A DNA stretch of 64,000 nt from a virus, in IMG/VR virus record IMGVR_UViG_3300025732_000017; one strand, 5' to 3'. Each line of letters begins with the position of its first letter. Position 1 is the first letter of the stretch. The notes beneath the pieces are model-generated. The model was not told the DNA's origin. It ran no database searches and was given only the letters and a program-made list of their open reading frames with translations. Shown in pieces: positions 11,934 to 25,604 of the stretch. The position numbers and the translations under genes are program-made.

Positions 11934-12131
11934 ATGAAGTTCTGTTGGGTAAAGAAAGTAGGAAGCAAGGCTAAGGAGTATGGTCTAAAGTTCCTGAAGG
12001 TTCTGGAAGAAGCAAACAAGCGTCGTGCCGAGAGAGCAATCTCACATGAGCTGCGTTACTACTATCAGAGAGAGTATCGTAATGACTTTTTGGAAAAGTT
12101 TCCATATCATGCGGTAACACGCAGAGACTGA
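11934..12131 (+). CDS. Hypothetical protein
   Basis: ORF followed by a terminator. Confidence 0.5.
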   Translation: MKFCWVKKVGSKAKEYGLKFLKVLEEANKRRAERAISHELRYYYQREYRNDFLEKFPYHAVTRRD

Positions 12132-12134
12132 CAG

Positions 12135-12160
12135 AAGGGGCGCCAAAAGCGCCCCTTTTT
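12135..12160 (+). terminator. Rho-independent terminator
   Basis: AAGGGGCGC-caaaa-GCGCCCCTT followed by T run. Confidence 0.8.
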
Positions 12161-12230
12161 GCTAAGTGCTTGATTTCATTCACAAAATTTAGGCCTTGAC
12201 TTTCGGACATATGAATAGTAATATGGAAAC

Positions 12231-12710
12231 ATGTTTAGGGTATTTGTAGGTAGTAAAAATGACGCCGTTCGCTTGGTCAAGCAACACAATGCAACGCATT
12301 GGATCAGTTTGCTTGATCTTGGCGATAGACAATTCTTTCCACCGGGAATGAATGATGTCAATCGGCTTTGGTTGAATTTTGAGGATGTGCTAAGGTCCAC
12401 CGATCGCGGTGCGCCAACGCGAGATCATGTCCAGAAAATACTGGACTTTACCAAGGATCTTGCAGATGGTGTCGTGGTTGTGAACTGCTTTGCTGGTGTT
12501 AGCCGCTCGACGGCAGCTGCGCTTGCGATACTGTTCCAACATCATCGCTGTGTGGAGACGGCAGTTGCTGAACTATTGGATGTGCGTCCGAACGCCTGTC
12601 CGAATCCTGTGATCAGCAAACACGCCGACGATATACTAGGCTGCAATGGACGCTTGTTCGATGCCGCCGAGCACATGGCGAAAACGAGAATTCTTGACAT
12701 ACTGCGATAA
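12231..12710 (+). CDS. CX5R protein-tyrosine/dual-specificity phosphatase-like protein
   Basis: VNCFAGVSRSTAAAL, ACPNP; preceded by extended promoter (TTGAC at 12196). Confidence 0.85.
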   Translation: MFRVFVGSKNDAVRLVKQHNATHWISLLDLGDRQFFPPGMNDVNRLWLNFEDVLRSTDRGAPTRDHVQKILDFTKDLADGVVVVNCFAGVSRSTAAALAILFQHHRCVETAVAELLDVRPNACPNPVISKHADDILGCNGRLFDAAEHMAKTRILDILR

Positions 12711-12799
12711 GTCATTGAATTGATTGAATAAATTTAGGCCTTGACTTATCGTAGTTACCCACATATACTGAGGCTTGTAAGTTGATTGATGAGGTAACG

Positions 12800-12943
12800 A
12801 TGAACCCGAACGAAACGCAGTCTTCTTTTGATGAGGCTGTTGCCGATCCGACCCTCTGGGAAGGATATGAGCAGTGGCTTGACGAGCAGGCTAGCATTTC
12901 GGACTTTGAACTCTGGCATGAGGAAAACGAATACCAGGGTTGA
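12800..12943 (+). CDS. Small very acidic protein (47 aa)
   Basis: GAGG RBS, promoter TTGAC 12741...TATACT; MNPNETQSSFDEAVADPTLWEGYEQWLDEQASISDFELWHEENEYQG. Confidence 0.6.
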   Translation: MNPNETQSSFDEAVADPTLWEGYEQWLDEQASISDFELWHEENEYQG

Positions 12944-13140
12944 TAAAAAAAGTCCTTGTGGTTCCAAAAAAAGTTTAGTAGAATACAGAAATGATGAAAC
13001 GAGACGACTAAATAGAGACATGAAACAGAGAACACATAAACAGAATTCAAATCGCGTCACACTAAAGCCTGAATGGTCAGCCATTCAAGCAGAGAGGCTT
13101 GTCTTGTAAACGGAGTTCCAACTTCGTTACACACAAGACA

Positions 13141-13166
13141 AGCCCTCCTCAGCGAGGGCTTTTTTG
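13141..13166 (+). terminator. Rho-independent terminator
   Basis: AGCCCTC-ctcagc-GAGGGCT followed by T run. Confidence 0.7.
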
Positions 13167-13323
13167 TTGACAAAGTGATGAATACCAGATAGTATCTGAT
13201 ATTCGATAAACGCAACGAGGGCGTGTCCTGCACTAGATTAGGACGAACGGTCGGCACCGAGGATGAAAGCTGCGGGGAGAACGCAGCGAGTAAAATCCGG
13301 AGGCAAGAAACATCAGAGTAACA

Positions 13324-13462
13324 TCTGATGTTTTCTAGTGTGCAGGGGACGAATTGCAATGAACCGCAAGAGGATAAGTTGCCTTTCGGTTGATCTGCCA
13401 ATCAGCGAACGCAAATCCTGGCAGGGATTTATTATATTCTCTGCACACCAGAAAACATCAGA
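13324..13462 (+). ncRNA. Unknown structured RNA A, closed by a 22-bp stem
   Basis: 13324-13345 pairs with 13441-13462 (one mismatch); ends 4 nt before tRNA-fMet. Confidence 0.6.
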
Positions 13463-13466
13463 ATAA

Positions 13467-13541
13467 CGCAGAGTGGAGCAGAAGCAGCTCGTCTGGCTCA
13501 TACCCAGAAGGCCACAGGTGCAAGTCCTGTCTCTGCAACCA
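13467..13541 (+). tRNA. tRNA-fMet (CAT), initiator-like
   Basis: Cloverleaf, C1:A72 mismatch, CCA end. Confidence 0.85.
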
Positions 13542-13689
13542 ATAAGGTGTCGTCATATTGGCGGCACCTACTAGGATGCTTATCTGTGAAGCCCAGCCAG
13601 GGTGGAGATAAGCCAATTGGGTCGCGCAATCCAATGAAGTCGCAATTGAGCGGTGGCACCGACAATTGTGGAGTCCTAGAAAATATCAT

Positions 13690-13777
13690 GGAAGTGTGGG
13701 AGAGTGGTTTAATCCGTCAGTCTTGAAAACTGAAGGACCTACGGGTCCCGTGAGTTCGAATCTCACCGCTTCCGCCA
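13690..13777 (+). tRNA. tRNA-Ser (TGA)
   Basis: Cloverleaf with long variable arm, CCA. Confidence 0.95.
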
Positions 13778-13811
13778 TTCATAAATAAGAAGAATAATTG
13801 AGAGACAGAAC

Positions 13812-14438
13812 ATGTTTACCTTCAAGTCTTTTCTGACAGAAAAGAAAGATCCGAATTCGGATACCGTGCATTTCACGGACATGGACGAGACACTATTCCA
13901 CTATGGAGATGGTCTTCGTATTCATGTCGTGAACCACGAAGGTAAGCGTGTTCAGAGTCTATCCAACTCAGAATTCAATACGCACAAACTACCCAAAGGT
14001 CATCGCTATGACTTCAGCGAGTTCCGCTCAGCGGAAAAGTTTGGCAAGACAGCCAAGCCAATTCGCAAGATGCTAGCCAAGATCAAGGGTATACATAAGA
14101 ATAACAAGAATGTCGCGATTGTTACTGCTCGCGCAGACTTTGACGATAAGGATAAGTTTGCACACCACATGAAAAGATTTGGATTGGATATCAATCAGAT
14201 CCATGTGCATCGCGCAGGCAATCTTGGACTAACGCCAGCTGAAGGCAAGAAACGAGTGATGTCTGATCAGATACGCAAGAATGGATACAAGACAGCGCAT
14301 CTGTATGATGATTCACAAGCCAATTTGGATGCATTTACTTCATTGAAGAAAGATCATCCAGATGTCACGTTTCATGCCCATCATGTTCATCATGATCCCG
14401 AGACTGGCGAGACAAAGATAACAACCAAGACCGTTTGA
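13812..14438 (+). CDS. HAD-superfamily phosphatase-like protein
   Basis: DMDETL motif I, VTAR motif II, YDD motif IV; CATAAATA late-type promoter at 13780. Confidence 0.75.
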   Translation: MFTFKSFLTEKKDPNSDTVHFTDMDETLFHYGDGLRIHVVNHEGKRVQSLSNSEFNTHKLPKGHRYDFSEFRSAEKFGKTAKPIRKMLAKIKGIHKNNKNVAIVTARADFDDKDKFAHHMKRFGLDINQIHVHRAGNLGLTPAEGKKRVMSDQIRKNGYKTAHLYDDSQANLDAFTSLKKDHPDVTFHAHHVHHDPETGETKITTKTV

Positions 14439-14443
14439 TATAC

Positions 14444-14519
14444 GGAGCGTTCGTCTAGAGGCCTAGGACCGCGGGCTTTCAATCCGCTAACAGGGGTTCG
14501 AATCCCCTACGCTCTACCA
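14444..14519 (+). tRNA. tRNA-Glu (TTC)
   Basis: Cloverleaf, CCA. Confidence 0.95.
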
Positions 14520-14603
14520 TTTTGCCAAGTTTTTGAGATAAAACTGGCCGCACATGGTCGCGAGAGAAACAGGTTGGAAACGTGCCATGATGTTCCAATC
14601 ACC

Positions 14604-14716
14604 TATCTTCATCACTCTGTGCATCAGGCGCGGCCGCGCCCCTATGCTAGAGCATAGCCTATCCATGCTGGGTAGGTTGTAGTGCAATTCTACCGATGCA
14701 CAGAGTCATGAAGATA
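14604..14716 (+). ncRNA. Unknown structured RNA B, closed by a 22-bp stem
   Basis: 14604-14625 pairs with 14695-14716 (one mismatch), enclosing several hairpins; 2 nt before tRNA-Val. Confidence 0.6.
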
Positions 14717-14718
14717 AT

Positions 14719-14794
14719 GGGCGCAGCGCCAGATGGGAAGGCATCGCGTTTACACCGCGACATTGAGCGGGTTCGATTCCCGAGGCGCCCACCA
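14719..14794 (+). tRNA. tRNA-Val (TAC)
   Basis: Cloverleaf (A7:G66 mismatch), CCA. Confidence 0.9.
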
Positions 14795-14799
14795 AGTTT

Positions 14800-14870
14800 G
14801 GATCGGATATCAACGGGGGATGGGTTCGTTTCGACAGCCCATCTCGGAAGTTCAAATCTTCCCCGATCCA
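14800..14870 (+). ncRNA. tRNA-like element with aberrant anticodon arm, no encoded CCA
   Basis: Acceptor GGATCGG/CCGATCC and T-arm GGAAG-TTCAAAT-CTTCC; no canonical 7-nt anticodon loop. Confidence 0.5.
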
Positions 14871-14878
14871 ATTCAAAT

Positions 14879-14956
14879 GGACCGATGACTGGAATTGGCT
14901 ATCAGTCTTGACTCTTAATCAAGAATATGTGGGTTCGAACCCCACTCGGTCCTCCA
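14879..14956 (+). tRNA. tRNA-Lys (CTT)
   Basis: Cloverleaf, U73, CCA. Confidence 0.93.
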
Positions 14957-14961
14957 CTAAA

Positions 14962-15195
14962 AGCGGCTTAGTGATCGTGCATAGCACACAGACGGAGGGA
15001 CTGCTGTAGAAAGTGTCCTGGGATAATATCCCGTCGCTCAATTTCAACTTCGCTGGAGAGGGAATGGTAGGGCTCATGCGGCCAGCATGAATCTGAATTC
15101 GGCTCTCAAAATAAAGGCATTGCCAGACCATGAAACGCCTGGACACTGGCCGTGGTAAAGTAGTGGGTTGTTGGTTCGATTCCAACCGCGAATCA
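14962..15195 (+). ncRNA. Unknown multi-helix RNA ending in a T-arm-like hairpin
   Basis: AGTGTCC/GGACACT, GGGAT/ATCCC, TCATGC/GCATGA, GAGAG/CTCTC helices; GTTGG-TTCGATT-CCAAC at 15170-15186. Confidence 0.45.
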
Positions 15196-15200
15196 ATTTA

Positions 15201-15275
15201 GGGCCCTTAGTGCTAGTGGGAACACGTCGGTTTTGCATACCGAAGTCAGGAGTTCGACTCTCCTAGGGTCCACCA
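15201..15275 (+). tRNA. tRNA-Ala (TGC)
   Basis: Cloverleaf, G3:U70, CCA. Confidence 0.95.
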
Positions 15276-15361
15276 ATTGACGGCTCATGGATTGCAGTTC
15301 ATGGGTGTAGTCGGTCAGCCAGGTATAATCAATGAAAGACTGCAATCTTTCAATTATATCT

Positions 15362-15433
15362 GCTTCGTTCGTCTAGAGGAGTAGGACACCGACCACACGG
15401 TCTGGAAACGTTGGTGCAAGTCCAACACGAAGA
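15362..15433 (+). ncRNA. Degenerate tRNA-like element (Glu/Asp-type D arm, 4-nt anticodon loop)
   Basis: CTTCGT/ACGAAG acceptor, GTTGG-TGCAAGT-CCAAC T-arm, GACC-acac-GGTC; no CCA. Confidence 0.5.
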
Positions 15434-15451
15434 TTTGCTGATTTCATTCAT

Positions 15452-15527
15452 GCTCCTGTCGTCTAGAGGCCTAGGACATTGCCCTCTCAAGGCAGAAACA
15501 CGGGTTCAAATCCCGTCAGGAGTACCA
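15452..15527 (+). tRNA. tRNA-Glu (CTC)
   Basis: Cloverleaf, CCA. Confidence 0.95.
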
Positions 15528-15533
15528 GTTGAT

Positions 15534-15608
15534 GGAGGCTATCGTCTAGTGGCGAGGACGGCGGTTTGTGAGTCCGCAGGCGAGAGTTCAATTCTCTCTA
15601 GTCTCCCA
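15534..15608 (+). tRNA. tRNA-His (GTG) with G-1:C73
   Basis: Cloverleaf, anticodon loop TTGTGAG; full CCA not encoded after C73. Confidence 0.85.
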
Positions 15609-15620
15609 TCAAAATCTTAT

Positions 15621-15694
15621 TGGAGGATCGGCTAACGGCAGGCCTGCGGCCTTTGACTCCGCTAATCTTGGTTCGAATCCAAGTCCTCCAGCCA
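15621..15694 (+). tRNA. tRNA-Gln (TTG)
   Basis: Cloverleaf, CCA. Confidence 0.93.
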
Positions 15695-15696
15695 GC

Positions 15697-16206
15697 TTAG
15701 TAAAGAATGAGAGAACGTCCCCTAACAAATCCAGATGGAATATCACAATCGAATTTTATTCTTGTGTTTGTTTTACCATCTGTAATCCAGATTTGCTTGT
15801 GCGTTCTTTTATATCCTTTATTTGATTTACCTCGTAAAGATGCACTTATTTTATCTTTATGTTCTTTAGATTTTGGTTTTGCAATAAATGCATTACTAAT
15901 TCTTATTTTAGTTTCTAATGAATAAAGTTTGCCGGCGACACCATCGCCACCATCTGTCATGTTGCGGAGAATGCCTGTGCCTAAGTCTTTGCGACCATAC
16001 CAACGAATATAACGTCGCTCTAGTGCAGATGCACCTGTGTTGGACAGATTAGTTTCAATAAACACTATTCTGGATCTGTCTTTAGGAACTGCAATACGAT
16101 GATTTTTTGAATACGCTCTTTTGTTGCAGCCCTTACCGATGTAGTAAGGAGTTCCATCTGGGCGTAGATATGCATAGACATAGTAGCAATAAATATCGTT
16201 TGACAT
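15697..16206 (-). CDS. Free-standing GIY-YIG homing endonuclease (Seg-like, NUMOD3-type C-terminus)
   Basis: YYVYAY...[28 protein letters not shown] motifs; antisense insertion in the tRNA array. Confidence 0.88.
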
Positions 16207-16292
16207 TGCTGTGTCTTCCTGTTAGAGTTATAGACATAGAGTGGATGGAAGTTGTCGCTTCGCGATCCACACTTATTTATACGAAAGTTTAT

Positions 16293-16367
16293 TCACCTCT
16301 CGGCTAATTGGTAGGCCTTTTCGCTCTGAACGAAACAGTCTTGGTTCGAATCCACGGAGGTGATCCA
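16293..16367 (+). tRNA. tRNA-Gln (CTG)
   Basis: Cloverleaf with one T-stem mismatch, CCA. Confidence 0.88.
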
Positions 16368-16374
16368 ATAATAT

Positions 16375-16459
16375 TCTCGGTCGGGGTATCCTGTTAGAGT
16401 TCTGCGCTCATTATGCATGTGAGAAAGCGAAGTCTGTGCAAATCAGACACCGAGAGCCA
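16375..16459 (+). ncRNA. Atypical tRNA-like RNA with CCA end
   Basis: TCTCGGT/ACCGAGA-G-CCA acceptor, GTCTG-TGCAAAT-CAGAC T-arm; enlarged D region; possible anticodon loop TATGCAT lacking U33. Confidence 0.55.
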
Positions 16460-16465
16460 ATTTAT

Positions 16466-16555
16466 GGAGAGTGGGCAGGACGGTAATGCAGCGGTTTGCT
16501 AAACCGTAGATCAGGTAAAATGGATCACAGGGTTCGACCCCCTGACTCTCCGCCA
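16466..16555 (+). tRNA. tRNA-Ser (GCT)
   Basis: Cloverleaf, long variable arm, CCA. Confidence 0.95.
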
Positions 16556-16556
16556 T

Positions 16557-16630
16557 ATCAGCGTAGTGTAACGGTAGCACGGCAGCCTCCAAAACTGCTT
16601 GTCAGGGTTCGAATCCTTGCGCTGGTGCCA
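16557..16630 (+). tRNA. tRNA-Trp (CCA)
   Basis: Cloverleaf, CCA. Confidence 0.92.
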
Positions 16631-16639
16631 TTTTAGCCC

Positions 16640-16668
16640 TTGACATGCCCAGCATGTCATAGTATACT
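16640..16668 (+). promoter_or_regulatory. sigma70-type promoter
   Basis: TTGACA-N17-TATACT. Confidence 0.8.
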
Positions 16669-16690
16669 TCAGATGTTGTTTGAAAATTGA

Positions 16691-16871
16691 ATATGACTTT
16701 CTGATGGGCGAGAAGTGCATCATCACACATTGGATGAAGCACCTTTGAGACGCGCGGGCGTCAGACCAGGCGAAAGCCTTTAGGGGTCGGCCTTTGACGC
16801 GGTCACCTGTCACGGCGAAGATTGTGGGGATGACAGCCACAATTGGATCCTCGCCCATCAGAAAGTCATAT
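16691..16871 (+). ncRNA. Unknown structured RNA C, closed by a perfect 22-bp stem
   Basis: ATATGACTTTCTGATGGGCGAG (16691-16712) is the exact reverse complement of 16850-16871; internal helices; starts 22 nt after its own promoter. Confidence 0.7.
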
Positions 16872-16881
16872 CAGTAAATAT

Positions 16882-16956
16882 GCTCCTGTGGCTCAACGGA
16901 AGAGCGGCCGGTTTCTACCCGGTAGGTTGTGGGTTCGAATCCTGCCAGGAGCGCCA
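16882..16956 (+). tRNA. tRNA-Arg (TCT)
   Basis: Cloverleaf, CCA. Confidence 0.93.
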
Positions 16957-17114
16957 TCATACTTCATCGGCTCGCGCCGTGAAGTTGTCATGCAGATCTT
17001 ATTGTTTGTGCTGCATGATTTAGAGTAAACAATACGATTCAAGCTGAGTGGGGGCTTGAGTAAGAGATAAATGGCATGATGCAACGCTCATGAACATAGC
17101 CCACTCCTAATTAT

Positions 17115-17190
17115 TCCCCTGTAGCACAGCGGTAGTTGCATTCGGCTGTTAACCGAAATGTCGTTCGTTCGAATCGAACCGGGGGAGCCA
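17115..17190 (+). tRNA. tRNA-Asn (GTT)
   Basis: Cloverleaf, CCA. Confidence 0.93.
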
Positions 17191-17194
17191 ATAC

Positions 17195-17270
17195 GCCTGC
17201 ATGGTCCAAAGGCACAAGACGCCCGTCTCATACGCGGGAAATCCTGGTTCGACTCCATGTGCAGGCACCA
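17195..17270 (+). tRNA. tRNA (CAT), elongator Met or Ile2
   Basis: Cloverleaf, anticodon loop CTCATAC, CCA. Confidence 0.85.
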
Positions 17271-17275
17271 ATTAC

Positions 17276-17369
17276 GGCCCTGTAGTTTAACGGTAGAACA
17301 CCCGGCTTATACTCGGCATTGTCTCCAGATTAGAGAGCAGTCCAGGTTCGAATCCTGGCGGGGCCACCA
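17276..17369 (+). tRNA. tRNA with TAT anticodon (Ile, AUA-reading) and a long variable arm
   Basis: GGCCCTG/CGGGGCC acceptor, loop CTTATAC, about 24-nt extra arm, CCAGG-TTCGAAT-CCTGG T-arm, CCA. Confidence 0.8.
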
Positions 17370-17447
17370 CTTCAGAATTTAGCAAGGCGGTAGAAGTCCG
17401 ACACGGTGCACCAGATGGGTTGTTGACCCTACTTGCTAAACCCATAC

Positions 17448-17523
17448 GGACTGATAGCATAATGGTTAATGCGTTCTGCTCATAACAGAGATTATGGGGG
17501 TTCGAATCCCTCTCGGTCCACCA
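17448..17523 (+). tRNA. tRNA (CAT), elongator Met or Ile2
   Basis: Cloverleaf, loop CTCATAA, CCA. Confidence 0.88.
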
Positions 17524-17529
17524 AGATAT

Positions 17530-17604
17530 GCTCGTCTAGTTCAACGGCCAGAACACCCGTTTCGTAAACGGGAGATCAAGGCTCGATTCCTTGGATGAGC
17601 ACCA
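17530..17604 (+). tRNA. tRNA-Thr (CGT)
   Basis: Cloverleaf, CCA. Confidence 0.92.
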
Positions 17605-17613
17605 AAATAGTTC

Positions 17614-17642
17614 TTGACATTACCCATTAGATTGGGTATAAT
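17614..17642 (+). promoter_or_regulatory. sigma70-type promoter
   Basis: TTGACA-N17-TATAAT perfect consensus. Confidence 0.85.
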
Positions 17643-17665
17643 GACTTCAAGAGTTGAAGATATAT

Positions 17666-17740
17666 GCCCATATAGCACAGCGGTAGTGCAGCGGTTTTGT
17701 AAACCGAAGGTCGGGAGTTCAATCCTCTCTGTGGGCACCA
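17666..17740 (+). tRNA. tRNA-Thr (TGT)
   Basis: Cloverleaf, CCA. Confidence 0.95.
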
Positions 17741-17747
17741 GTTTAAA

Positions 17748-17824
17748 GGTCCGTTCGTCTAGTGGCTTAAGACATCCGCCTGTCACGCGGAAGATCACGG
17801 ATTCGAATTCCGTACGGATCGCCA
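17748..17824 (+). tRNA. tRNA-Asp (GTC)
   Basis: Cloverleaf, CCA. Confidence 0.95.
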
Positions 17825-17828
17825 TTAT

Positions 17829-17903
17829 GGGGGTGTGGCTCAATCGCGGAGCGTTCGCCTGATTAGCGAAAGGTTGTAGGTTCAAGTCCTACCACCCCTA
17901 CCA
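17829..17903 (+). tRNA. tRNA-Ile (GAT)
   Basis: Cloverleaf, CCA. Confidence 0.92.
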
Positions 17904-17951
17904 ATTGGTGTATAGTAGCATGTAGTTTGTGTAAGTCGTTCGTCCAGAATT

Positions 17952-18034
17952 GGACCGGTCACCGTAGTGGCGAGCGGCGCAGACTTTTAATCTGCTATTA
18001 TACATCGTGGGTTCGAGTCCCACCCGGTCCTCCA
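17952..18034 (+). tRNA. tRNA-Lys (TTT) with enlarged variable region
   Basis: GCAGA-CTTTTAA-TCTGC; about 11-nt variable region; U73; CCA. Confidence 0.88.
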
Positions 18035-18039
18035 TTTAT

Positions 18040-18114
18040 AGCCTCGTAGTATAACGGAGAGAACATCTGACTACGAATCAGAAGATGAGGGTTCGATTCC
18101 TTCCGAGGCTGCCA
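18040..18114 (+). tRNA. tRNA-Arg (ACG)
   Basis: Cloverleaf, CCA. Confidence 0.93.
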
Positions 18115-18118
18115 GTTA

Positions 18119-18194
18119 CGGAGAGTTTGATAGCGGCTAATCGACATGCTTTGGGAGCATGGTTTCGTGGGTTCGAGTCCCACCTCTCCGACCA
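18119..18194 (+). tRNA. tRNA-Pro (TGG)
   Basis: Cloverleaf, CCA. Confidence 0.93.
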
Positions 18195-18198
18195 TTTT

Positions 18199-18274
18199 GG
18201 ATCGTTAGTGAAGCTGGTGCACACGTTCCGCTGAAGACGGAAAGAACTCTGTTCGATTCAGAGACGATCCACCA
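18199..18274 (+). tRNA. tRNA-Phe (GAA)
   Basis: Cloverleaf, CCA. Confidence 0.92.
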
Positions 18275-18276
18275 TT

Positions 18277-18525
18277 ATGGAGATATACATGATTGAATTG
18301 GAAAATCTTAGTGACATTCAAAAGTCACTATGTGATATTCTTTGGGAACTTGATGGTCCCGATGAACTTCAGGCATTTCTCAATGGTCTTCCAGAACGTC
18401 TGCGTAGAGATGCTGAATCCATGATTCAGATGATGCTCTTAAATAGTATTGACAAGACGGAAGATACCAAGTATGCTGATGAAATCTTGAGTAAGATACT
18501 GAACAAAGACAAGACTACTGATTGA
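18277..18525 (+). CDS. Hypothetical protein
   Basis: ORF with GGAG RBS upstream of an internal ATG. Confidence 0.55.
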   Translation: MEIYMIELENLSDIQKSLCDILWELDGPDELQAFLNGLPERLRRDAESMIQMMLLNSIDKTEDTKYADEILSKILNKDKTTD

Positions 18526-18542
18526 ATTGAAAGGAGGTAACA

Positions 18543-19100
18543 ATGTCTATCGGACTCAGAACGCTCGTACTAAATGCGGACTATCATCCAATATCATTGT
18601 TTCCTCTGCACACAATTCCAGTAGAGGATGCGGTGACGCGCCTGTTCAATGGCACCTGTCAGCTTGTATATGAGCATGATCGCAAGATCTTGACGCCAAG
18701 TCTGAACATGAAGTGGCCATCGGTCATTGCTCGTATTGACACCAAGCGTGTCAAGGAGCGTGTAAAGTTGGGCGCTGAAGGTTTGTATTACCGTGATCAC
18801 GGTCTGTGTGCATACTGCGAAACTCCTTTGACGCTAAAGTGCATCACATTCGATCACGTTGTTCCAAAGAGCAAGGGTGGAACCTATTCTTGGGACAATC
18901 TTGTTTCGGCTTGCAGTACCTGCAATCTGCTCAAGGGCGATTCTCCGCCTGTGGGTAAGTGGGCACCAAAGCGTAAGCCATACAAGCCTTCATACTATGA
19001 CCTGCTTGCTGTAAGAAAGAAGTTTCCGATTCAGATCGATGACGAGAATTGGATTCAGTTCATTGGTAAGTGGGATGCGCCTGTGGTGGTCAAGAACTAG
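18543..19100 (+). CDS. HNH endonuclease (McrA-like)
   Basis: LVLNADY N-terminus; RDHGLCAYC...TFDHVVPKSKGG..WDNLVSACSTCNLLKG. Confidence 0.9.
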   Translation: MSIGLRTLVLNADYHPISLFPLHTIPVEDAVTRLFNGTCQLVYEHDRKILTPSLNMKWPSVIARIDTKRVKERVKLGAEGLYYRDHGLCAYCETPLTLKCITFDHVVPKSKGGTYSWDNLVSACSTCNLLKGDSPPVGKWAPKRKPYKPSYYDLLAVRKKFPIQIDDENWIQFIGKWDAPVVVKN

Positions 19101-19109
19101 AAATAGTTC

Positions 19110-19138
19110 TTGACTCACCCAACAAGATATAGTATATT
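19110..19138 (+). promoter_or_regulatory. sigma70-type promoter
   Basis: TTGACT-N17-TATATT just upstream of tRNA-Tyr. Confidence 0.7.
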
Positions 19139-19147
19139 ATGGATTAT

Positions 19148-19240
19148 GGGAGCGTTGGTACTATGGTGTGTGTGCCTCCTGACTGTAAATCAGGTCCCTT
19201 GTGGTAAACGATGCTGGTTCGACTCCGGCCGCTCCCACCA
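19148..19240 (+). tRNA. tRNA-Tyr (GTA)
   Basis: Cloverleaf, long variable arm, CCA. Confidence 0.92.
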
Positions 19241-19244
19241 AATT

Positions 19245-19318
19245 GCGTGGTTGGTATATTGATTGTGCCTCGGCCTTCCAAGCCGATGAAACGAGTTTGA
19301 TTCTCGTACCACGCTCCA
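19245..19318 (+). tRNA. tRNA-Gly (TCC)
   Basis: Cloverleaf, CCA. Confidence 0.92.
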
Positions 19319-19323
19319 GTTTT

Positions 19324-19398
19324 GCGGATGTAGCACAGTGGTAGTGCATCACGTTGCCAACGTGAATGTCGTGGGTTCGACCCCCATCATCCGCTCCA
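19324..19398 (+). tRNA. tRNA-Gly (GCC)
   Basis: Cloverleaf, CCA. Confidence 0.95.
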
Positions 19399-19483
19399 GT
19401 TTTTGAGCCTACGCCTAGCGGCGATAGGTCTATCGAGGTTTTCTTGGCTGTACCAGCATAGCAAAACAACCAAGACGAGTTTT

Positions 19484-19560
19484 GCCCTTGTATCCCAATT
19501 GGCAGAGGAGGCTGATTCAAAACCAGCATGTTGTCGGTTCGACTCCGACCGAGGGCACCA
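19484..19560 (+). tRNA. tRNA-Leu (CAA), short variable loop
   Basis: Cloverleaf, loop TTCAAAA, 5-nt variable loop, CCA. Confidence 0.88.
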
Positions 19561-19699
19561 AAACACCGAATGCGACGACCAGTATCGCATTCGGTCAGCA
19601 CCGAAGTACGTTAGAATTTGAGCGTTTGAAGTGACGTAATGGCGATGAGAGGTCATATGACTCATTGTAACCATCTCCCGCTTCGGTGCGAATCTATAT

Positions 19700-19776
19700 G
19701 CTCCTGTAGCCCAACTGGCAGAGGCATTGGTCTTAGGAACCAAGTGTTGTGAGTTCGACTCTCACCGGGAGCACCA
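19700..19776 (+). tRNA. tRNA-Leu (TAG), short variable loop
   Basis: Cloverleaf, CCA. Confidence 0.9.
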
Positions 19777-19789
19777 TTTTGTTTGTTAT

Positions 19790-19865
19790 GAGCGTGTGAC
19801 CCGAATGGCTAGGGACCTGACTGCAACTCAGGTATATGTAGGTTCAACTCCTATCACGCTCTCCA
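19790..19865 (+). tRNA. tRNA-Cys (GCA)
   Basis: Cloverleaf, U73, CCA. Confidence 0.93.
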
Positions 19866-20468
19866 ATGTTTAGGAATTGCATCTTTCATTTGAGATTCTA
19901 TCTCTTGTTTTATCTCTTCGTAATTTTCAGGTTGTTGTGTTTTCTTATAATTACTTTTCAATTCTGAAAAATCAATGTCCTCGTAATATATGCGTTGATT
20001 AAAAATTTGCAGATGATTGGCATAAAAAAGACTTCTAGATAATCTTGTTATTAGGATAGAAATATCTTTAGGTATAATTTTCACCGTATATTTTTTTTCT
20101 AATTCGTGTTTCAAAGTATGAAATTTATCAAGATGATCTGCAATATACCAACTAGCCAATTGAGATACTATATCTTTTCGCATTAGTAATATTTTGTATC
20201 CATTCTCTATTTCGTTTAGATATGGTGATCTAAATTGCAAGTCGTGTAGCCAAAATTTTACTATGTATTTGTTTGTGGTTTTTTTATACTGAATGTATTC
20301 TTCATAATGTAATAGATAAGATTTGTCTAGACTGTAAATTTTAGAATGCCAGGGCTCACGAAATGCTCTTATTTTTAGTTTCTGTTCTAATAATTCCACA
20401 TAAGGTGTGGATCCACATCTAGGAGCAACACCAATAATAACTATAGGGAATTTGTCAAAATTCATCAC
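19854..20468 (-). CDS. Sulfotransferase-like protein (Stf0-like)
   Basis: N-terminal APRCGSTP (5'-PSB-like loop), EPW, ILLMRKDIVSQLASWYIA (3'-PB-like), IYYED. Confidence 0.6.
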   Translation of the reverse strand: MMNFDKFPIVIIGVAPRCGSTPYVELLEQKLKIRAFREPWHSKIYSLDKSYLLHYEEYIQYKKTTNKYIVKFWLHDLQFRSPYLNEIENGYKILLMRKDIVSQLASWYIADHLDKFHTLKHELEKKYTVKIIPKDISILITRLSRSLFYANHLQIFNQRIYYEDIDFSELKSNYKKTQQPENYEEIKQEIESQMKDAIPKHWRA

Positions 20469-21268
20469 AGTCCCATTTCCTTTCTTATCTTAGTCGCACT
20501 AATGCTGGTAATGCTTTCATCAAATGTTTCTTGCTCAATCTTGTATCCAACATCTCGTCCATATGTGATGTTGACGATGTTTGGTACAAGACGAATGATA
20601 TAACGATTGTTGTATTCGCAATCCAAATCACGACGAATTCGTTCCTCTACATCGGAGAATGAGAATGGATTCTTTTCGTCGTTGCAATTGCGAACCATGA
20701 TGGCAACTTGACCTGTTTTTGCAATTGCACGTTCAAACAATGCACGATGGCCTTTGTGCCATGGTTGCCAGCGACCAAGCATTTGCACAGTTGGTTTTTC
20801 CCAATCAAATTCAGGACGTAAGTTATTCATTATTGCATGAGCAATTTTTGGCGCCCATTTCTTTGCATCCATTTCAGAGATACGGAAATCATAATTGTGG
20901 TGTGATGGTTTTTCAAACAAAGCATTCGTGTTTGCATATTTGCTTTGATCAATCGTGTCCATCCATATGATCCAATCGGCATCATATATTTTTCGCATGT
21001 CCAATAATGGACAGACAAAGTCAACAATGACGTACTTGCTGTCAGATTTGTCTGCAAGCAAACGCATTCTCTGCGCTTGGCGCAATCTTCCCTTTATGGA
21101 AAAATCCCAATCATTGTGCATCTCCCTGACTTGGTCAGCATTATACCAGACTGCGTTATGATTTTTTAGGCAATTAAGAAGTTCTTTTGCTAGTGTAGTT
21201 TTTCCAGATCCCGGAAGACCCATGATTAGAATTCGCGTTGACATCATATACTCCGCATAATAAGACAA
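20465..21268 (-). CDS. APS-kinase-like domain fused to a cytidyltransferase-like (HxGH) domain
   Basis: ILIMGLPGSGKTT, NADQVR, DWDFS..GRLRQA; C-terminal GRWQPWHKGH and ISATKIR. Confidence 0.85.
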   Translation of the reverse strand: MSYYAEYMMSTRILIMGLPGSGKTTLAKELLNCLKNHNAVWYNADQVREMHNDWDFSIKGRLRQAQRMRLLADKSDSKYVIVDFVCPLLDMRKIYDADWIIWMDTIDQSKYANTNALFEKPSHHNYDFRISEMDAKKWAPKIAHAIMNNLRPEFDWEKPTVQMLGRWQPWHKGHRALFERAIAKTGQVAIMVRNCNDEKNPFSFSDVEERIRRDLDCEYNNRYIIRLVPNIVNITYGRDVGYKIEQETFDESITSISATKIRKEMGL

Positions 21269-21288
21269 ACTATATATTCATGTTTGCA

Positions 21289-21364
21289 GGGACCATAGTT
21301 CAGTGGCAAGAACACCTGCTCGACACGCAGGGGGTCGTTGGTTCAAATCCATCTGGTCCCACCA
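21289..21364 (+). tRNA. tRNA-Val (GAC)
   Basis: Cloverleaf, C33 instead of U33, CCA. Confidence 0.88.
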
Positions 21365-21365
21365 C

Positions 21366-21440
21366 GTCCTCATAGTATAGTGGCGATTACACGGCTTTGG
21401 TAAAGCTGAGATGGCAGTTCAATTCTGCCTGAGGGCACCA
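21366..21440 (+). tRNA. tRNA-Thr (GGT)
   Basis: Cloverleaf, CCA. Confidence 0.92.
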
Positions 21441-21447
21441 TTTCCTC

Positions 21448-21476
21448 TTGACATTCTAAAACGACTACTATATACT
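21448..21476 (+). promoter_or_regulatory. sigma70-type promoter
   Basis: TTGACA-N17-TATACT. Confidence 0.8.
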
Positions 21477-21517
21477 GTACATGCTAGTGTTTTCTAGTGA
21501 TTTCAAAGGAGAAGTAA

Positions 21518-21964
21518 ATGATGAAGTATCTTTCTGCACTTGCGGGCGCCATGATGGCAACCACCGCTATGGCTGGTGATCTTTATGTAACTGGTAGCCT
21601 GGGCACCCATGCTACTGGATCTGGTGATGCTGTCGTTGGCGTTGCTCTTGGCATGGAGACACACAAGAATCTTCGCGTTGAGGCTGCATATGAGTACGAT
21701 GTAGACACCAAGGGCAATAGGCTGTTTGCACATGCTCTTCCTCAGGCTCAGATTCCCGGCACTGCTCTGACACCATACGTTCTCGTTGGTGTTGGCGTTG
21801 ATCTTGAATCTCTTGATTCAAAGCCAATGTATGCTCTTGGTGGCGGCGTTCGCGTCGAGTTGACCAAGTCTACAGATCTTGATCTTCGTTATCGTCGTGT
21901 TGATAACACCGATAACACGGACAAGCGTGAAGTCGTTTCCGCTGGTGTTAGCGTAAAGTTCTGA
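21518..21964 (+). CDS. Small outer-membrane beta-barrel protein (OmpA/OmpW-like 8-stranded)
   Basis: Signal peptide (AMA/GD), amphipathic strands LRVEAAYEY, PYVLVGVG, DLDLRYR, terminal Phe. Confidence 0.85.
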   Translation: MMKYLSALAGAMMATTAMAGDLYVTGSLGTHATGSGDAVVGVALGMETHKNLRVEAAYEYDVDTKGNRLFAHALPQAQIPGTALTPYVLVGVGVDLESLDSKPMYALGGGVRVELTKSTDLDLRYRRVDNTDNTDKREVVSAGVSVKF

Positions 21965-21973
21965 TCGAAAGTA

Positions 21974-21999
21974 GTGGCGGCGGCATTAGTCGCCGCCAC
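21974..21999 (+). terminator. GC-rich hairpin, probable terminator
   Basis: GTGGCGGCGGC-atta-GTCGCCGCCAC just after the OMP stop. Confidence 0.55.
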
Positions 22000-22007
22000 A
22001 ATCAGAA

Positions 22008-22556
22008 ATGCATACGTTCAAGTTCCACAAAAATTTCTGGCAGTTGATTGTTACCACGACTGCCAAATCAAGACTCGCCCCCAATTTCGTTGGGCTAGTC
22101 CAGGCAGCATATGCCAAAACACCAGAAGGTAGTTTTGTCAACACGCTAAATGACGTTGTCGCAACTAACTGGATTGCCCTAGACTGGGACAAAGACGAAG
22201 ATGCTGACTCTTGCATTTTCTTCAGAAAGTCGAGGCCAAATGAATCTTGGAAAGGATTCAAGATTCAAGGAATAGGACACGATACGCAAAGGACATCTAT
22301 CGATAAAGTCTTGATCAAAGTCAAGGATCAGTTAAGAAAGAAAGGTTGGTGGATAGAGGCATCTGATGCTTTTGAGCATATCCTCTATAAGGATAGAAGA
22401 GTTCCCGTCGTTACAGACGAGGATTTTCTAGTCTCCTTGTTTCCGACTTCAAATCTTCAACTTTTGAATGATCGACAAAAGCCGGGAAAATATGTCAGAG
22501 GAGTTGCAGGTAAGTCTGTCAAGGAAAGTGTATTTGGCAACCCCACGTTAAAATGA
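22008..22556 (+). CDS. Hypothetical protein
   Basis: 182-aa ORF, no motif recognised. Confidence 0.6.
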   Translation: MHTFKFHKNFWQLIVTTTAKSRLAPNFVGLVQAAYAKTPEGSFVNTLNDVVATNWIALDWDKDEDADSCIFFRKSRPNESWKGFKIQGIGHDTQRTSIDKVLIKVKDQLRKKGWWIEASDAFEHILYKDRRVPVVTDEDFLVSLFPTSNLQLLNDRQKPGKYVRGVAGKSVKESVFGNPTLK

Positions 22557-22559
22557 TAA

Positions 22560-23093
22560 ATGGAGAAAAATATGCTCACGAAGGTACCCAATGTTGTTTT
22601 TCATACTCGCGTTCGCGATGATACTGCTACTGGTCCAAATCCGTATAGATGGGCGCAAGTAAGCACGTTTGAACTCTTTGGCGAAAAGAGAATCCTTGCA
22701 TTCTCTCTTCCCGGTGCATTTACACCAACATGTTCCACATATCAGGTTCCTCGCTTTGAGGAAATGTACAACAAGTTCCGCGCTCTTGGCATTGATGATG
22801 TCTACTGCATTTCTGTCAATGATGCATTCGTCATGAATGCTTGGGCCAAGAAGCAGGGCATTGAAAACATCAAGATGATTCCAGATGGCTCGGCCAAATT
22901 CACTCGCCAAATGGGAATGCTTGTTGACAAGGATAATCTGGGATTCGGCATGCGTTCATGGCGATATGCATTCTTGGTAGAGAATGAAAAGATCGTCAGG
23001 TCTTGGATTGAGCCTGGTCTAAAGGATCTCGCAATGGATGATCCATATGGCGAGACAAATCCAGAAAAGATCTATGAGGATCTAACCAAGTAA
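22560..23093 (+). CDS. Peroxiredoxin (Prx5 type; probable start 22572)
   Basis: FSLPGAFTPTCS, SVNDAFVMNAW, GFGMRSWRY. Confidence 0.95.
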   Translation: MEKNMLTKVPNVVFHTRVRDDTATGPNPYRWAQVSTFELFGEKRILAFSLPGAFTPTCSTYQVPRFEEMYNKFRALGIDDVYCISVNDAFVMNAWAKKQGIENIKMIPDGSAKFTRQMGMLVDKDNLGFGMRSWRYAFLVENEKIVRSWIEPGLKDLAMDDPYGETNPEKIYEDLTK

Positions 23094-23150
23094 CATAAAT
23101 AAAAATGTAGATTTTTTCTACACAACACACAACACACAAAGGAATAAATC

Positions 23151-23339
23151 ATGAAAAATCCATATGAAATGCGCTATGAATATTATCGCTCAGCTAAAGA
23201 ACAGTTGCTAGAGGAATATCATGCAAAAATTACTGAAATGCAAATCGCAGATCGTAAAGACGATTTTCCAAAGTACCCAACAACTGACGATATCATTGCG
23301 CTAGCTGAACGAATCAAATCTTTTACAGAAAAAAAATAA
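23151..23339 (+). CDS. Small conserved T4-like phage protein
   Basis: NPYEMRY...PKYPT..DIIALAE pattern; CATAAATA at about 23094. Confidence 0.55.
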   Translation: MKNPYEMRYEYYRSAKEQLLEEYHAKITEMQIADRKDDFPKYPTTDDIIALAERIKSFTEKK

Positions 23340-23378
23340 GCCTTGACATTTCCAGAACTGTCGCGTAATATGATGAAC

Positions 23379-23750
23379 ATGAAGATCATCTATGTCCGCG
23401 ACAGTTCTGGAAAGAAAAAGCCTTCCAAGTCCAAGCGACTGGAAGCAATTCGTCTAGAACATCAGAAGTTTCTTGCCTCCGTCGGTTACAAGGGAACTTC
23501 CCGCTTGGTGCGAGCAAAGCCAGCTGCGCTGGTTGCTCCTAGTGCGCCATCAATTCCTTCCAGCTCGCTTCGCGACATGATCGCACCTTGCCCAAAGAAG
23601 GATATCTTTGAGCGTACCAGAAACGAGTCCGAAGAAGTCAAGGAAGCCATTCGTGCAAAGGCTGCTAGAACTGCGCCAGCCTATAACAAGGGCGCTCTGC
23701 AGTACATTACTGATGGTGATAATTTGAAGACACTCGGTAGAAAGGTTTAG
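23379..23750 (+). CDS. Hypothetical T4-like phage protein
   Basis: APAYNKGALQYI C-terminal motif; promoter TTGACA 23343-N17-TAATAT. Confidence 0.6.
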   Translation: MKIIYVRDSSGKKKPSKSKRLEAIRLEHQKFLASVGYKGTSRLVRAKPAALVAPSAPSIPSSSLRDMIAPCPKKDIFERTRNESEEVKEAIRAKAARTAPAYNKGALQYITDGDNLKTLGRKV

Positions 23751-24482
23751 GAGAATAAGCTGATGGATATACTATTATCAATTTTCATTGGCATGATATT
23801 AGTGAGAATATGGGATTGTTATTGGGAACTTGAAAAAATTCGCAAAGAAGAAAAAGAATGAAAGCGCAAATTTTACTCAATGGTCAAATGATTAGATTTG
23901 ATAATTTTACGATGGAGATTCTAAATGGAATTTTATTCATCTCCGTTTTGGTTGTGGATGTATCTTCGCGCCAACTCAAGGCACTTGCTGACTGGTTTGC
24001 TGAGAAATACCCAAATCAGACTATAATTGCTATAGTTTCCCAAAATTCAAAGGTTTGAACATGAAAGACAATATTAAACCGTGCCTGATGGATACCATCA
24101 TTGTTCCCAGGGAACGAAATACAATTTATCAACACCCAGAATCCTATCTCTGGTCGCAGCGTAGCATTTATCTAATGGAAAACAAGATGGAAAGTCTCAA
24201 GAACGCCCTTGACAATATCCGTCAGATATGTGAGAATGAAAACATCAAGCCGAAGATGAAGTTGACGTTTGTGGAAACAATTGCTGGTCTTGCTCTTGGA
24301 TTGACTAATGATGACGGCCGTAGCTGAATACACACCCGAACAGATTGAGACAATCAAGCTGCGAGCGCGGCGACTAATCAATGGTGTTTCCCATACACCG
24401 ACTTTCATTGACGCTAATCACCTGATGATTGAACAGCTTCTAAATATTGTGGATCAATATGAAAGGCTCAAGGAGGCCTCAG

Positions 24483-24896
24483 ATGCGTAATGTCGTTCTT
24501 TCTCTTTTTGCTGCTTCTATGCTTGCCGGCTGTGCTGGTGCTGGTCCTAATCAGACTGGCGGTGCTGTCGTTGGCGGTGTCGCAGGTGGCGTTCTTGGCT
24601 CTATGTTTGGTGGTGGTACCGGGCGCCTCGTTGGCACTGGCCTGGGTGCTGCTATTGGCACAGCGGTAGGCTCTTCTGTCGGCGCATCCATGGATCGCCA
24701 GGAGCAGATGCAGAATCAGCCCGTGCATCAGCCATATCATGCGCCGTCGCATATGTATGGTCAGAACAATCTTTCCCGCCCTCACGCCTCAGCTGGTGAG
24801 GAGTCTGCATACAATCGCGGCCGCGCCGAGCGCGAGGCTCAGATCCAGCAGCGTCGTGAGCAGGACGCATACATGCGTGGTCTTCGCGGTTACTAA
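24483..24896 (+). CDS. Glycine-zipper lipoprotein
   Basis: Lipobox LAGC, GAVVGGVAGGVLG...GAAIGTAVGSSVG. Confidence 0.85.
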   Translation: MRNVVLSLFAASMLAGCAGAGPNQTGGAVVGGVAGGVLGSMFGGGTGRLVGTGLGAAIGTAVGSSVGASMDRQEQMQNQPVHQPYHAPSHMYGQNNLSRPHASAGEESAYNRGRAEREAQIQQRREQDAYMRGLRGY

Positions 24897-24911
24897 TAAG
24901 GAGTTTTTGTA

Positions 24912-25169
24912 ATGGAATTTACTGTCTACACCTCGCCATCTTGCGGTTATTGCAAGATGGCCAAGGAACTGATTTCACAAAAGGGTCACAAGTATATTGA
25001 AAAGAGCATCGGCAAGGACTTGACTAAGGATGAGTTCTTTGCTAAGATGGGTCCAGGTATCAAGAGTGTGCCTCAGGTCTTCATTGGAGATAAGCGTATC
25101 GGTGGATACGAGAATCTTCGTGAATACTATGAGGAGATCACCAACAACTTTGGCAAGCAAGGATTTTGA
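24912..25169 (+). CDS. Glutaredoxin
   Basis: CGYC, SVPQVF, IGGY. Confidence 0.93.
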   Translation: MEFTVYTSPSCGYCKMAKELISQKGHKYIEKSIGKDLTKDEFFAKMGPGIKSVPQVFIGDKRIGGYENLREYYEEITNNFGKQGF

Positions 25170-25170
25170 T

Positions 25171-25419
25171 ATGTACACCAAGCACCAGCTCAAGGAATTT
25201 TGTCAGAACGGTGTTGTCACCGTCGTGTTCACCAAGGCCGATGGATCAGAGCGTACCATGAAGGCTACGCTGCTTCCAGAGTATGTGAACAATGGCAAGA
25301 CTCTGCTTCAGGAGAACGAGAACAAGCGCCCAGAGAATCCTGATGTCCTCGCCGTGTGGGATGTTGATGCAAATGGATGGCGCAGTTTTCGTATTGATTC
25401 AATCAAGGGAGTTTCATAA
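25171..25419 (+). CDS. Conserved T4-like protein (SH3/WYL-like fold)
   Basis: VTVVFTKADGSERTMKATL...VWDVDANGWRSFRID. Confidence 0.75.
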   Translation: MYTKHQLKEFCQNGVVTVVFTKADGSERTMKATLLPEYVNNGKTLLQENENKRPENPDVLAVWDVDANGWRSFRIDSIKGVS

Positions 25420-25505
25420 TGCCACACGCACATAAGAACCGTCCGCGCAAGGGTCGTCGCAAGATTGGCTCCAAGAAGCGTCGCGCACGTTCTCTTCGCA
25501 AGTAA
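25419..25505 (+). CDS. Very basic 28-aa peptide
   Basis: MPHAHKNRPRKGRRKIGSKKRRARSLRK; TAATG overlap with the upstream stop. Confidence 0.55.
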   Translation: MPHAHKNRPRKGRRKIGSKKRRARSLRK

Positions 25506-25512
25506 GATATCT

Positions 25513-25589
25513 GCCCACATAGACCAATAGGCAGAGTCAAGGAACTTAAAATTCCTGTGTTGTGAGTTCGAATCTCACTGTGGGCACCA
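25513..25589 (+). tRNA. tRNA-Leu (TAA), short variable loop
   Basis: Cloverleaf, AGGAA-CTTAAAA-TTCCT, CCA. Confidence 0.9.
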
Positions 25590-25604
25590 ATTCCAGAGGA
25601 TACC

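Follow-up and report, generated by a model that had tools for sequence, protein, structure and literature searches.

The transfer RNA (tRNA) array of an uncultured freshwater phage, represented by the IMG/VR virus record IMGVR_UViG_3300025732_000017, contains three modules (M1, M2, and M3), each closed by a stem of 22 base pairs (bp) and ending a few nucleotides (nt) upstream of a tRNA gene. The window, i.e. the whole stretch of 64,000 nt analyzed here, is almost fully represented in DNA runs of freshwater metagenomes. It harbors 34 tRNA genes in an array at 13.4-25.6 kb and a two-piece alpha-type transfer-messenger RNA (tmRNA) at 62.7 kb. An inverted-repeat scan of the window from 12000 to 26000 yields exactly three pairs, which are the arms of M1, M2, and M3 (Table 1). 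By chance, 14 kb of sequence would not be expected to contain a repeat of 22 bp with at most one mismatch inside 400 nt. The modules had been pointed out before in an inspection without database searches (the sequence-only reading), and its stem coordinates and mismatch counts agree exactly with the scan. The distances it gave to the following tRNAs are confirmed by the ARAGORN predictions, and the promoter it placed before M3 was found again.

Table 1. Features of the module-bearing part of the array and the complementary loop pairs. Positions refer to the window.
Feature	Position	Strand	Description
Terminator-like hairpin	13140-13161		just upstream of the promoter at 13167..13195
Sigma-70-like promoter	13167..13195	+	TTGACA-N17-TAGTAT; 10/12 matches; heads the tRNA operon
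Structured leader RNA	13206..13306	+	GAA/AGUA (loop-E-like) internal loop; ahead of M1
R'	13307..13317	+	incomplete repeat of the right arm of M1, capable of base-pairing with the outermost 10 nt of the M1 left arm
Module M1	13324..13462	+	22-bp closing stem around three hairpins, cloverleaf-like four-way junction; arms 13324-13345 / 13441-13462 (22 nt, 95% complementary, one A.C mismatch); 95 nt enclosed
M1 core	13389..13430	+	hairpin A loop CUGCCA (13395-13400); GCGAA (13405-13409); hairpin B loop UGGCAG (13419-13424)
tRNA-Met (CAU)	13467..13541	+	ARAGORN; starts 4 nt past M1
Module M2	14604..14716	+	22-bp closing stem around four-hairpin tRNA-like cloverleaf; arms 14604-14625 / 14695-14716 (22 nt, 95% complementary, one C.C mismatch at the helix center); 69 nt enclosed
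M2 hairpins	14627-14640; 14642-14657; 14658-14676; 14679-14693	+	14642-14657 with tetraloop
M2 T-arm-like hairpin	14679..14693	+	GUAG-UGCAAUU-CUAC; one nt short of the closing stem's 3' strand
tRNA-Val (UAC)	14719..14794	+	ARAGORN; starts 2 nt past M2
Sigma-70-like promoter	16640..16668	+	TTGACA-N17-TATACT; 11/12 matches; ~20 nt ahead of M3
Module M3	16691..16871	+	perfect 22-bp closing stem around five hairpins; arms 16691-16712 / 16850-16871 (22 nt, 100% complementary); 137 nt enclosed
M3 core	16801..16843	+	hairpin A loop CUGUCA (16807-16812); GCGAA (16815-16819); hairpin B loop UGACAG (16831-16836)
tRNA-Arg (UCU)	16882..16956	+	ARAGORN; starts 10 nt past M3
Loop pair of M0 and M1b			A CUACUA; B UAGUAG
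Loop pair of L214			A CUGACC; B GGUCAG; independent stem, before tRNA-Leu

The nested hairpins that had been seen within the stems correspond to predicted multibranched folds with z-scores of -7.4 (M1), -8.0 (M2), and -8.0 (M3), and none of 200 shuffles folds equally well. Folding energies of the two strands are similar and thus leave the strand undecided. A comparison with Rfam 15, suggested in the sequence-only reading, returned no family match for the whole window at gathering thresholds, for the array at E<=10, or for each module alone at E<=10; the hits obtained (9-15 bits) are at chance level, and the tRNA model RF00005 matches none of the three. The strings CUGAUG...GAAA in the arms were considered as a hammerhead ribozyme and rejected, as they pair together inside the stem, the order of the core does not fit, and Rfam shows no match.

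Two statements of the sequence-only reading have to be corrected. It described the stems as being of the same length, whereas M1 extends to 28 pairs with G.U and M2 and M3 to 24, and arms in relatives mostly form 20-27 pairs (some down to ~16-18). It also called the sequences unrelated, whereas M1 and M3 share a core and the arms of M1 and M2 an inner box (see below). The module stems and those of most relatives show the geometry of an RNase III substrate, i.e. about two turns (at least 20 bp) of nearly unbroken double-stranded RNA.

Related loci, given here by their L numbers, were fetched via three routes: a HAD-like gene within the array, patterns of the arms and of tRNA-Met, and a pattern of the leader RNA ahead of M1. 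Among the matches listed from the leader-pattern scan of metagenomes most were due to chance, the relevant ones being L269, L295, L298, L299, L320, L324, L326, and L328. Among 50,697 deposited phage records, a nucleotide search gave tRNA matches only and no close relative, a protein search with a neighboring open reading frame (ORF) as query gave no match, and literature searches yielded no description of such stem-closed modules. The run data compared with the window are assembled contigs, which break at repeats; gaps in their RNA coverage (in X15, M2 and most of M3) carry no weight, and the contig joints 14626->14695, 16699->16863, and 14511->14724, with sides of less than 30 nt, were left out.

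Conserved stems with exchanged contents

At the site before tRNA-Met, the same arms that hold M1 in the window and in L002 enclose a different module of 141 nt (M1b) in L066, L072, L082, L106, and L110, and L001 and L299, with flanks ~97-99% identical to those of the window, carry a further module, M0, in tandem with M1. A corresponding tandem joint (13462->13328, with GCATTCT between the two positions) is present in the DNA runs. A second lineage of arms (Y) differs from that of the window (X) at six of 21 stem positions, and every one of these changes is compensated in the partner arm. Within Y-lineage arms, L113 and L136 carry a tRNA-like content and L137 and L201 a rod-like one; L324 has the two in tandem. 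X-lineage, Y-lineage, and M2 arms have the inner box UGUGCAU in common. A scan of viral contigs with the Y-lineage arms gave almost solely chance 15-mer matches. The same applies to the M3 arms, for which no variant beyond L001 was detected; the L001 copy shows only two differences from M3, both at unpaired positions. Five variants of M2 have invariant arms and all retain the central C.C mismatch, although their interiors diverge by as much as ~15-30%. In sum, the stem at a given site is better conserved than the contents, which are swapped, doubled, or absent between near-identical phages. This most telling feature of the modules is not part of the sequence-only reading. The exchange at the tRNA-Met and M2 sites suggests that the constant stem is a general frame for the expression and processing of exchanged contents.

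The position of such modules relative to tRNAs is strongly biased. When the array regions of all fetched loci were searched for arms of at least 17 pairs with interiors of at least 40 nt, 20 of the 26 distinct modules were found to end at most 10 nt before a tRNA, and three start at most 10 nt after one. In a stricter scan (Watson-Crick arms of at least 20; 4.47 Mb with 724 tRNAs), 16/38 modules end within this distance before a tRNA, and none of the 38 starts that close after one. Independent stems are those of M2, M3, L214, L304, L226, and four modules of L301, which precede tRNA-His, tRNA-Glu, tRNA-Asp, and tRNA-Tyr. The L301 modules must be parts of a polycistronic precursor, because they fill the whole gap between the tRNAs and leave no room for a promoter.

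Several observations point to selection on the RNA level. One-sided changes in closing stems mostly yield G.U on the tRNA-sense strand, with at least seven events versus a single A.C in a hand tally (L136, two in L137, L113, L295, and two M2 positions), to which three G.U in the inner extension of M1 can be added. Taken together with the strict orientation and the co-variation within the contents, this bias favors selection acting on the sense RNA. Transcription in this orientation also agrees with the + strand promoters that precede M1 and M3. Co-variation of the stems in homologs, a further check suggested in the sequence-only reading, is present, and the pairing is probably maintained by selection, as judged from these substitution patterns.

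M1 is preceded by a structured leader RNA that has no match in Rfam. In an alignment of nine relatives, nine of its 23 predicted pairs stay paired through two-sided changes. The leader also occurs in L003 and L269, relatives without long-stem modules. It is followed by R', which differs between the X and Y lineages in step with the arms (AAACATCAGA versus ACAAGTATCA). If the 22-bp M1 helix were cut midway, the leader would end in a small R' hairpin, with its 3' end predicted near 13334-13336. We infer that this arrangement fits cutting by RNase III; alternatively, R' could be the remnant of a lost upstream module.

tRNA-like folds and complementary loops

The four hairpins of M2 follow the order D, anticodon, extra arm, and T. 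For a tRNA-like RNA, a cloverleaf arm order and a T-arm (5-bp stem, 7-nt loop of the UUCRANU type) beside the 3' strand of the end helix were taken as diagnostic. Both are seen in the M2 homologs of L066 and L215 (GGUAG-UUCGAUU-CUACC) and in the L113 content (GUGAG-UUCGAUU-CUCAU). The T-loop of the window's M2, UGCAAUU, is looser, with a similar form in the phage's own tRNA-Met. ARAGORN calls the L066 M2 as "tRNA-???", and the tRNA-Sec model gives a weak match (14 bits, E=1.9). M2 cannot decode, because a tetraloop occupies the anticodon position. Two of the inner hairpins in the M2 family have each undergone a two-sided change, from C-G to A-U and from A-U to G-C. At the anticodon position of the tRNA-like Y-lineage content, L113 (984-1101) shows a 7-nt loop (CCGCGUU), which in L324 (1139-1266) is replaced by one of 15 nt; this position is thus free to change.

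M1, M0, and M1b each possess three hairpins within the end helix and therefore a cloverleaf topology; M1 has no T-loop. M1 and M3 share a core of constant order, namely a short hairpin A, the sequence GCGAA at its 3' foot, and a hairpin B, with 6-nt loops of A and B that are exactly complementary. Four differing complementary loop pairs fill the same place in this motif, those of M1, of M0 and M1b, of M3, and of L214 (Table 1). In a control with shuffled interiors, a 6-nt loop-loop match was found in only 0.75 of 46 modules; the evidence for the loop-pair core comes from pattern scans and this shuffle control. In L299, the M1 core is 100% identical to that of the window, and the adjoining hairpin is largely replaced. 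Each of the four A loops starts with CU, and all but that of L214 end in A. In its sequence, the A loop seems to resemble an anticodon loop (positions 32-33 and 37), and the B loop could be read as the matching codon followed by AG. The loop-loop contact is least certain in M3, according to the predicted folds.

The contents are thus cloverleaf-like, tRNA-shaped, and non-decoding. M2 retains a T-arm as well as a long extra arm, and M1 and M3 present a hairpin resembling an anticodon arm with the loop CUNNNN.

Interpretation and comparison with known RNAs

We consider M1-M3 to be small non-coding RNA genes carried in the tRNA operon of a large T4-like phage from freshwater, belonging to a wider class of stem-closed modules located 5' of tRNAs, and assign this reading a probability of roughly 55%. 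That they are structured RNA genes under selection can be stated with considerably more confidence. In the proposed pathway, each module would be co-transcribed with the tRNAs from the + strand, and its ends would pair to a helix of 20-28 bp. RNase P, in maturing the 5' end of the downstream tRNA, would leave 2-10 nt attached to the 3' end of the module, and the 5' side would be fixed by RNase III within the helix or by trimming to the helix base. The helix would then shield both ends, giving a long-lived RNA. This route, in which RNase P acts 3' of the module and the helix is either cut by RNase III or trimmed, is plausible, with about even chances of being right. The proposal of the sequence-only reading, a family of phage small RNAs within the tRNA precursor whose 3' ends are defined by RNase P, fits the bias toward the 5' side of tRNAs and the position of comparable RNAs in T5, even though its wording on unrelated sequences and equal stem length was wrong.

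Several points weigh against this interpretation. The modules are dispensable: L003 and L004, whose neighboring protein is 79% identical, are devoid of M1 and M2 and have tRNA-Glu and tRNA-Val 4 nt apart, and L072 retains only a decayed M2. In L295, the tRNA-Met stem is nearly empty, forming a 54-nt hairpin with a mere 8-nt loop, so that the stem may outweigh the contents; the higher conservation of the M2 arms compared with their contents points in the same direction. The count of positions is partly biased, because the patterns used to retrieve some of the loci were themselves based on the arms or the start of tRNA-Met. Perfect arms can arise without selection, via template-switch correction of near-palindromes or recombination between repeated arms, and arm co-variation is for this reason weaker evidence than it looks. 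The minimum-energy fold of M3 pairs CUGUCA with an upstream UGACG and thereby competes with the loop-loop contact. A search for an RNase III domain in four partial relatives found none, which for partial genomes is no evidence of absence. RNA-library contigs span parts of the tRNA array, which is weak evidence in favor; assembled contigs are blind to RNA ends or levels, and DNA carry-over into the RNA libraries is possible.

The nearly empty stem of L295 is also an argument for an explanation in which the stem alone works, as an RNase III-type processing site or an insulating hairpin in the tRNA precursor akin to the stalks and intervening sequences of ribosomal RNA (rRNA) operons, with the apical content as a passenger (a decayed tRNA or a captured fragment). 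Such a role would agree with the invariant arms of the M2 variants, with a single stem housing at least four unrelated contents, with the location of the conserved C.C mismatch at the center of the M2 helix, and with R', which would provide the leader with a terminal hairpin after a mid-helix cut. The contents, however, show signs of selection of their own in their co-varying loops, the invariant core in L299, and the compensatory changes in M2 hairpins. Moreover, types of content recur in different stems (the loop-pair core in M1, M3, and L214; the T-arm type in M2, the Y lineage, and L304), and L003/L004 matures the same tRNAs without such a stem. We regard this explanation as rather unlikely. 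That the modules are selfish or recombination-driven DNA cassettes, whose palindromic arms drive insertion, deletion, and exchange in a hypervariable tRNA region while the RNA has no role, as in miniature inverted-repeat elements or T4-type promoter-stem-loop cassettes, is decidedly unlikely. This would account for modules such as M0 being present or absent between phages that are ~97-99% identical, for the tandem joint in the DNA runs, and for the identical arms of the tandem modules in L001 and L324; single-module variants also resemble deletions between direct arm copies. Yet target-site duplications are absent, with no duplicated flanks visible in an alignment covering the tandem modules of L001, and multi-copy identical elements are missing, with each arm occurring once in the window and the arms differing between sites. 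The strict orientation on the 5' side of tRNAs and the preference for G.U pairs on the sense strand also speak against it, and the co-variation inside the contents is not explained by DNA mobility.

A resemblance to bacterial Y RNAs of the YrlA type, in which a long terminal stem binding Ro60/Rsr is combined with a tRNA-like module, concerns the general layout, i.e. a long 5'/3' stem together with a tRNA-like part bearing a T-arm in M2, L113, and L304. The tRNA-like part keeps the normal arm order, unlike YrlA, and small-range Rfam scans revealed no Y-RNA match even at E<=10. No TROVE domain was found in the large ORFs of the window that were tested, nor in the four partial relatives; the latter result, which for partial genomes is no evidence of absence, counts among the points against the interpretation as stable small RNAs favored here as well. 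An assignment to this family is very improbable.

Among known RNAs, the small stable RNAs of phage tRNA clusters come closest to the small non-coding RNA genes proposed here. For the tRNA cluster of T5, record NC_005859 annotates eight RNAs other than tRNAs; the label is "stable RNA with unknown functions" for several of them and "tRNA-like stable RNA" for two. The stable RNAs RNAIII, RNAI, RNAIV, RNA2H, RNA1, and RNA2 are encoded among the tRNA genes on the same strand, and RNAIII and RNAX abut tRNA-His and tRNA-Arg, respectively, at the tRNA 5' end. In the folds of RNAIII, RNAIV, and RNA2H, the two ends pair and enclose several hairpins, and RNA1 and RNA2 carry T-arms. In contrast to the 20-28 bp of the window, the closing stems in T5 comprise ~8-12 bp, and there is no sequence similarity; T5 RNAs also show no complementary loop pair, and no swapping of cassettes under a constant stem is known for T5. 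T4 encodes the species 1 and species 2 RNAs (rnaC and rnaD) as small stable RNAs in its tRNA cluster, rnaC with a T-arm. These follow tRNA-Arg instead of preceding a tRNA and are again without sequence similarity to the modules; as direct relatives they are ruled out, since they have no long closing helix. The modules share with the T5/T4-type RNAs the location within the tRNA cluster, on the same strand, and adjoining a tRNA. By analogy, they can be regarded as the same kind of RNA, set apart by a longer end helix, the exchange of cassettes, and the complementary loop pair.

Two further systems are mechanistic or structural parallels and not relatives. Intervening sequences and processing stalks of rRNA possess a long helix formed by the ends of the insert and cut by RNase III, are sporadic among strains, and vary at their apex; they lie in or around rRNA, and their contents are not tRNA-shaped. 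The packaging RNA (pRNA) of phi29, with ~120 nt, combines a long 5'/3' helix and a central junction with two complementary loops that co-vary between relatives and pair between molecules to form a ring on the packaging motor. The modules show neither an Rfam match to pRNA nor sequence similarity, and to our knowledge, packaging RNA has not been described from T4-type phages.

Further features of the array and implications

The array contains additional elements that deserve mention. The 148-nt spacer between tRNA-Met and tRNA-Ser (13542-13689) is conserved across both arm lineages and looks like another uncatalogued structured RNA. A tRNA-like insert of 79 nt (14800-14878) with an acceptor-like stem and a T-arm (GGAAGUUCAAAUCUUCC) is not called by ARAGORN; it is missing in L001, and contigs of three runs skip it (joint 14799->14879). 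The spacer between tRNA-Gln and tRNA-Ser (16368-16465, ~98 nt) harbors a tRNA-like acceptor and T-arm ending in CCA, while its counterpart in L001 comprises 11 nt. The region 15693-16633 has no similarity to the corresponding region of L001, although the flanks are 95-99% identical. It carries versions of tRNA-Gln, tRNA-Ser, and tRNA-Trp different from those of L001 and, on the - strand (15697-16206), an ORF of 169 amino acids (aa) with a NUMOD3 motif, probably a homing endonuclease. A 208-aa HAD-phosphatase-like gene with a weak match to Pfam Acid_phosphat_B lies within the array (13812-14438); relatives of it were found in 59 viral contigs, mostly without neighboring tRNAs. Finally, an 18-bp hairpin with a loop of 12 nt (CCTAGAA...ATAG / CTAT...TTCTAGG) recurs at the start of ~650-nt inserts in the tRNA arrays of relatives (L001 11806-11853 and 14266-14313, L215 8476-8523, and the reverse strand of L137) and may be the leader of inserted endonuclease genes. 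Outside the array, the intervening segment of the tmRNA (62807-62907) is closed by a 12-bp stem and contains two hairpins whose loops carry the complementary sequences CGCGA and UCGCG; it follows the same design idea as the modules.

Small stable RNAs from the tRNA clusters of T4 and T5 have been known for some fifty years, and we know of none to which a function has been assigned. The modules described here offer comparative leverage on such RNAs, since they have a defined architecture, with contents shaped like tRNAs inside a long end helix that is placed strictly before a tRNA. Near-identical phages in which the same stem is empty, refilled, or doubled represent natural experiments, and the co-varying loop pair indicates a specific and testable RNA-RNA contact. 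Our best guess, held with low confidence, is that the RNAs bind or distract a factor that recognizes the shape of tRNAs. A more far-reaching model, speculative and in its full extent unlikely, would be a modular system of stem cassettes, in which the constant helix of 20-28 bp lets tRNA-processing enzymes free any enclosed RNA and the contents are traded between phages. One class of content would then present an anticodon-like loop (CU, three nt, and A in three of four cases) paired to its own "codon" loop, acting as a decoy or inhibitor against defenses that cut or sense anticodon loops; alternatively, the loops might pair between molecules as in phi29 pRNA, leading to dimers or rings. Apart from its role in the phage, the constant stem could serve as a practical frame to express stable small RNAs in bacteria. 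If the contents are indeed tRNA mimics directed against host defenses that target tRNAs, phage tRNA arrays would be counter-defense loci that offer more than spare tRNAs.

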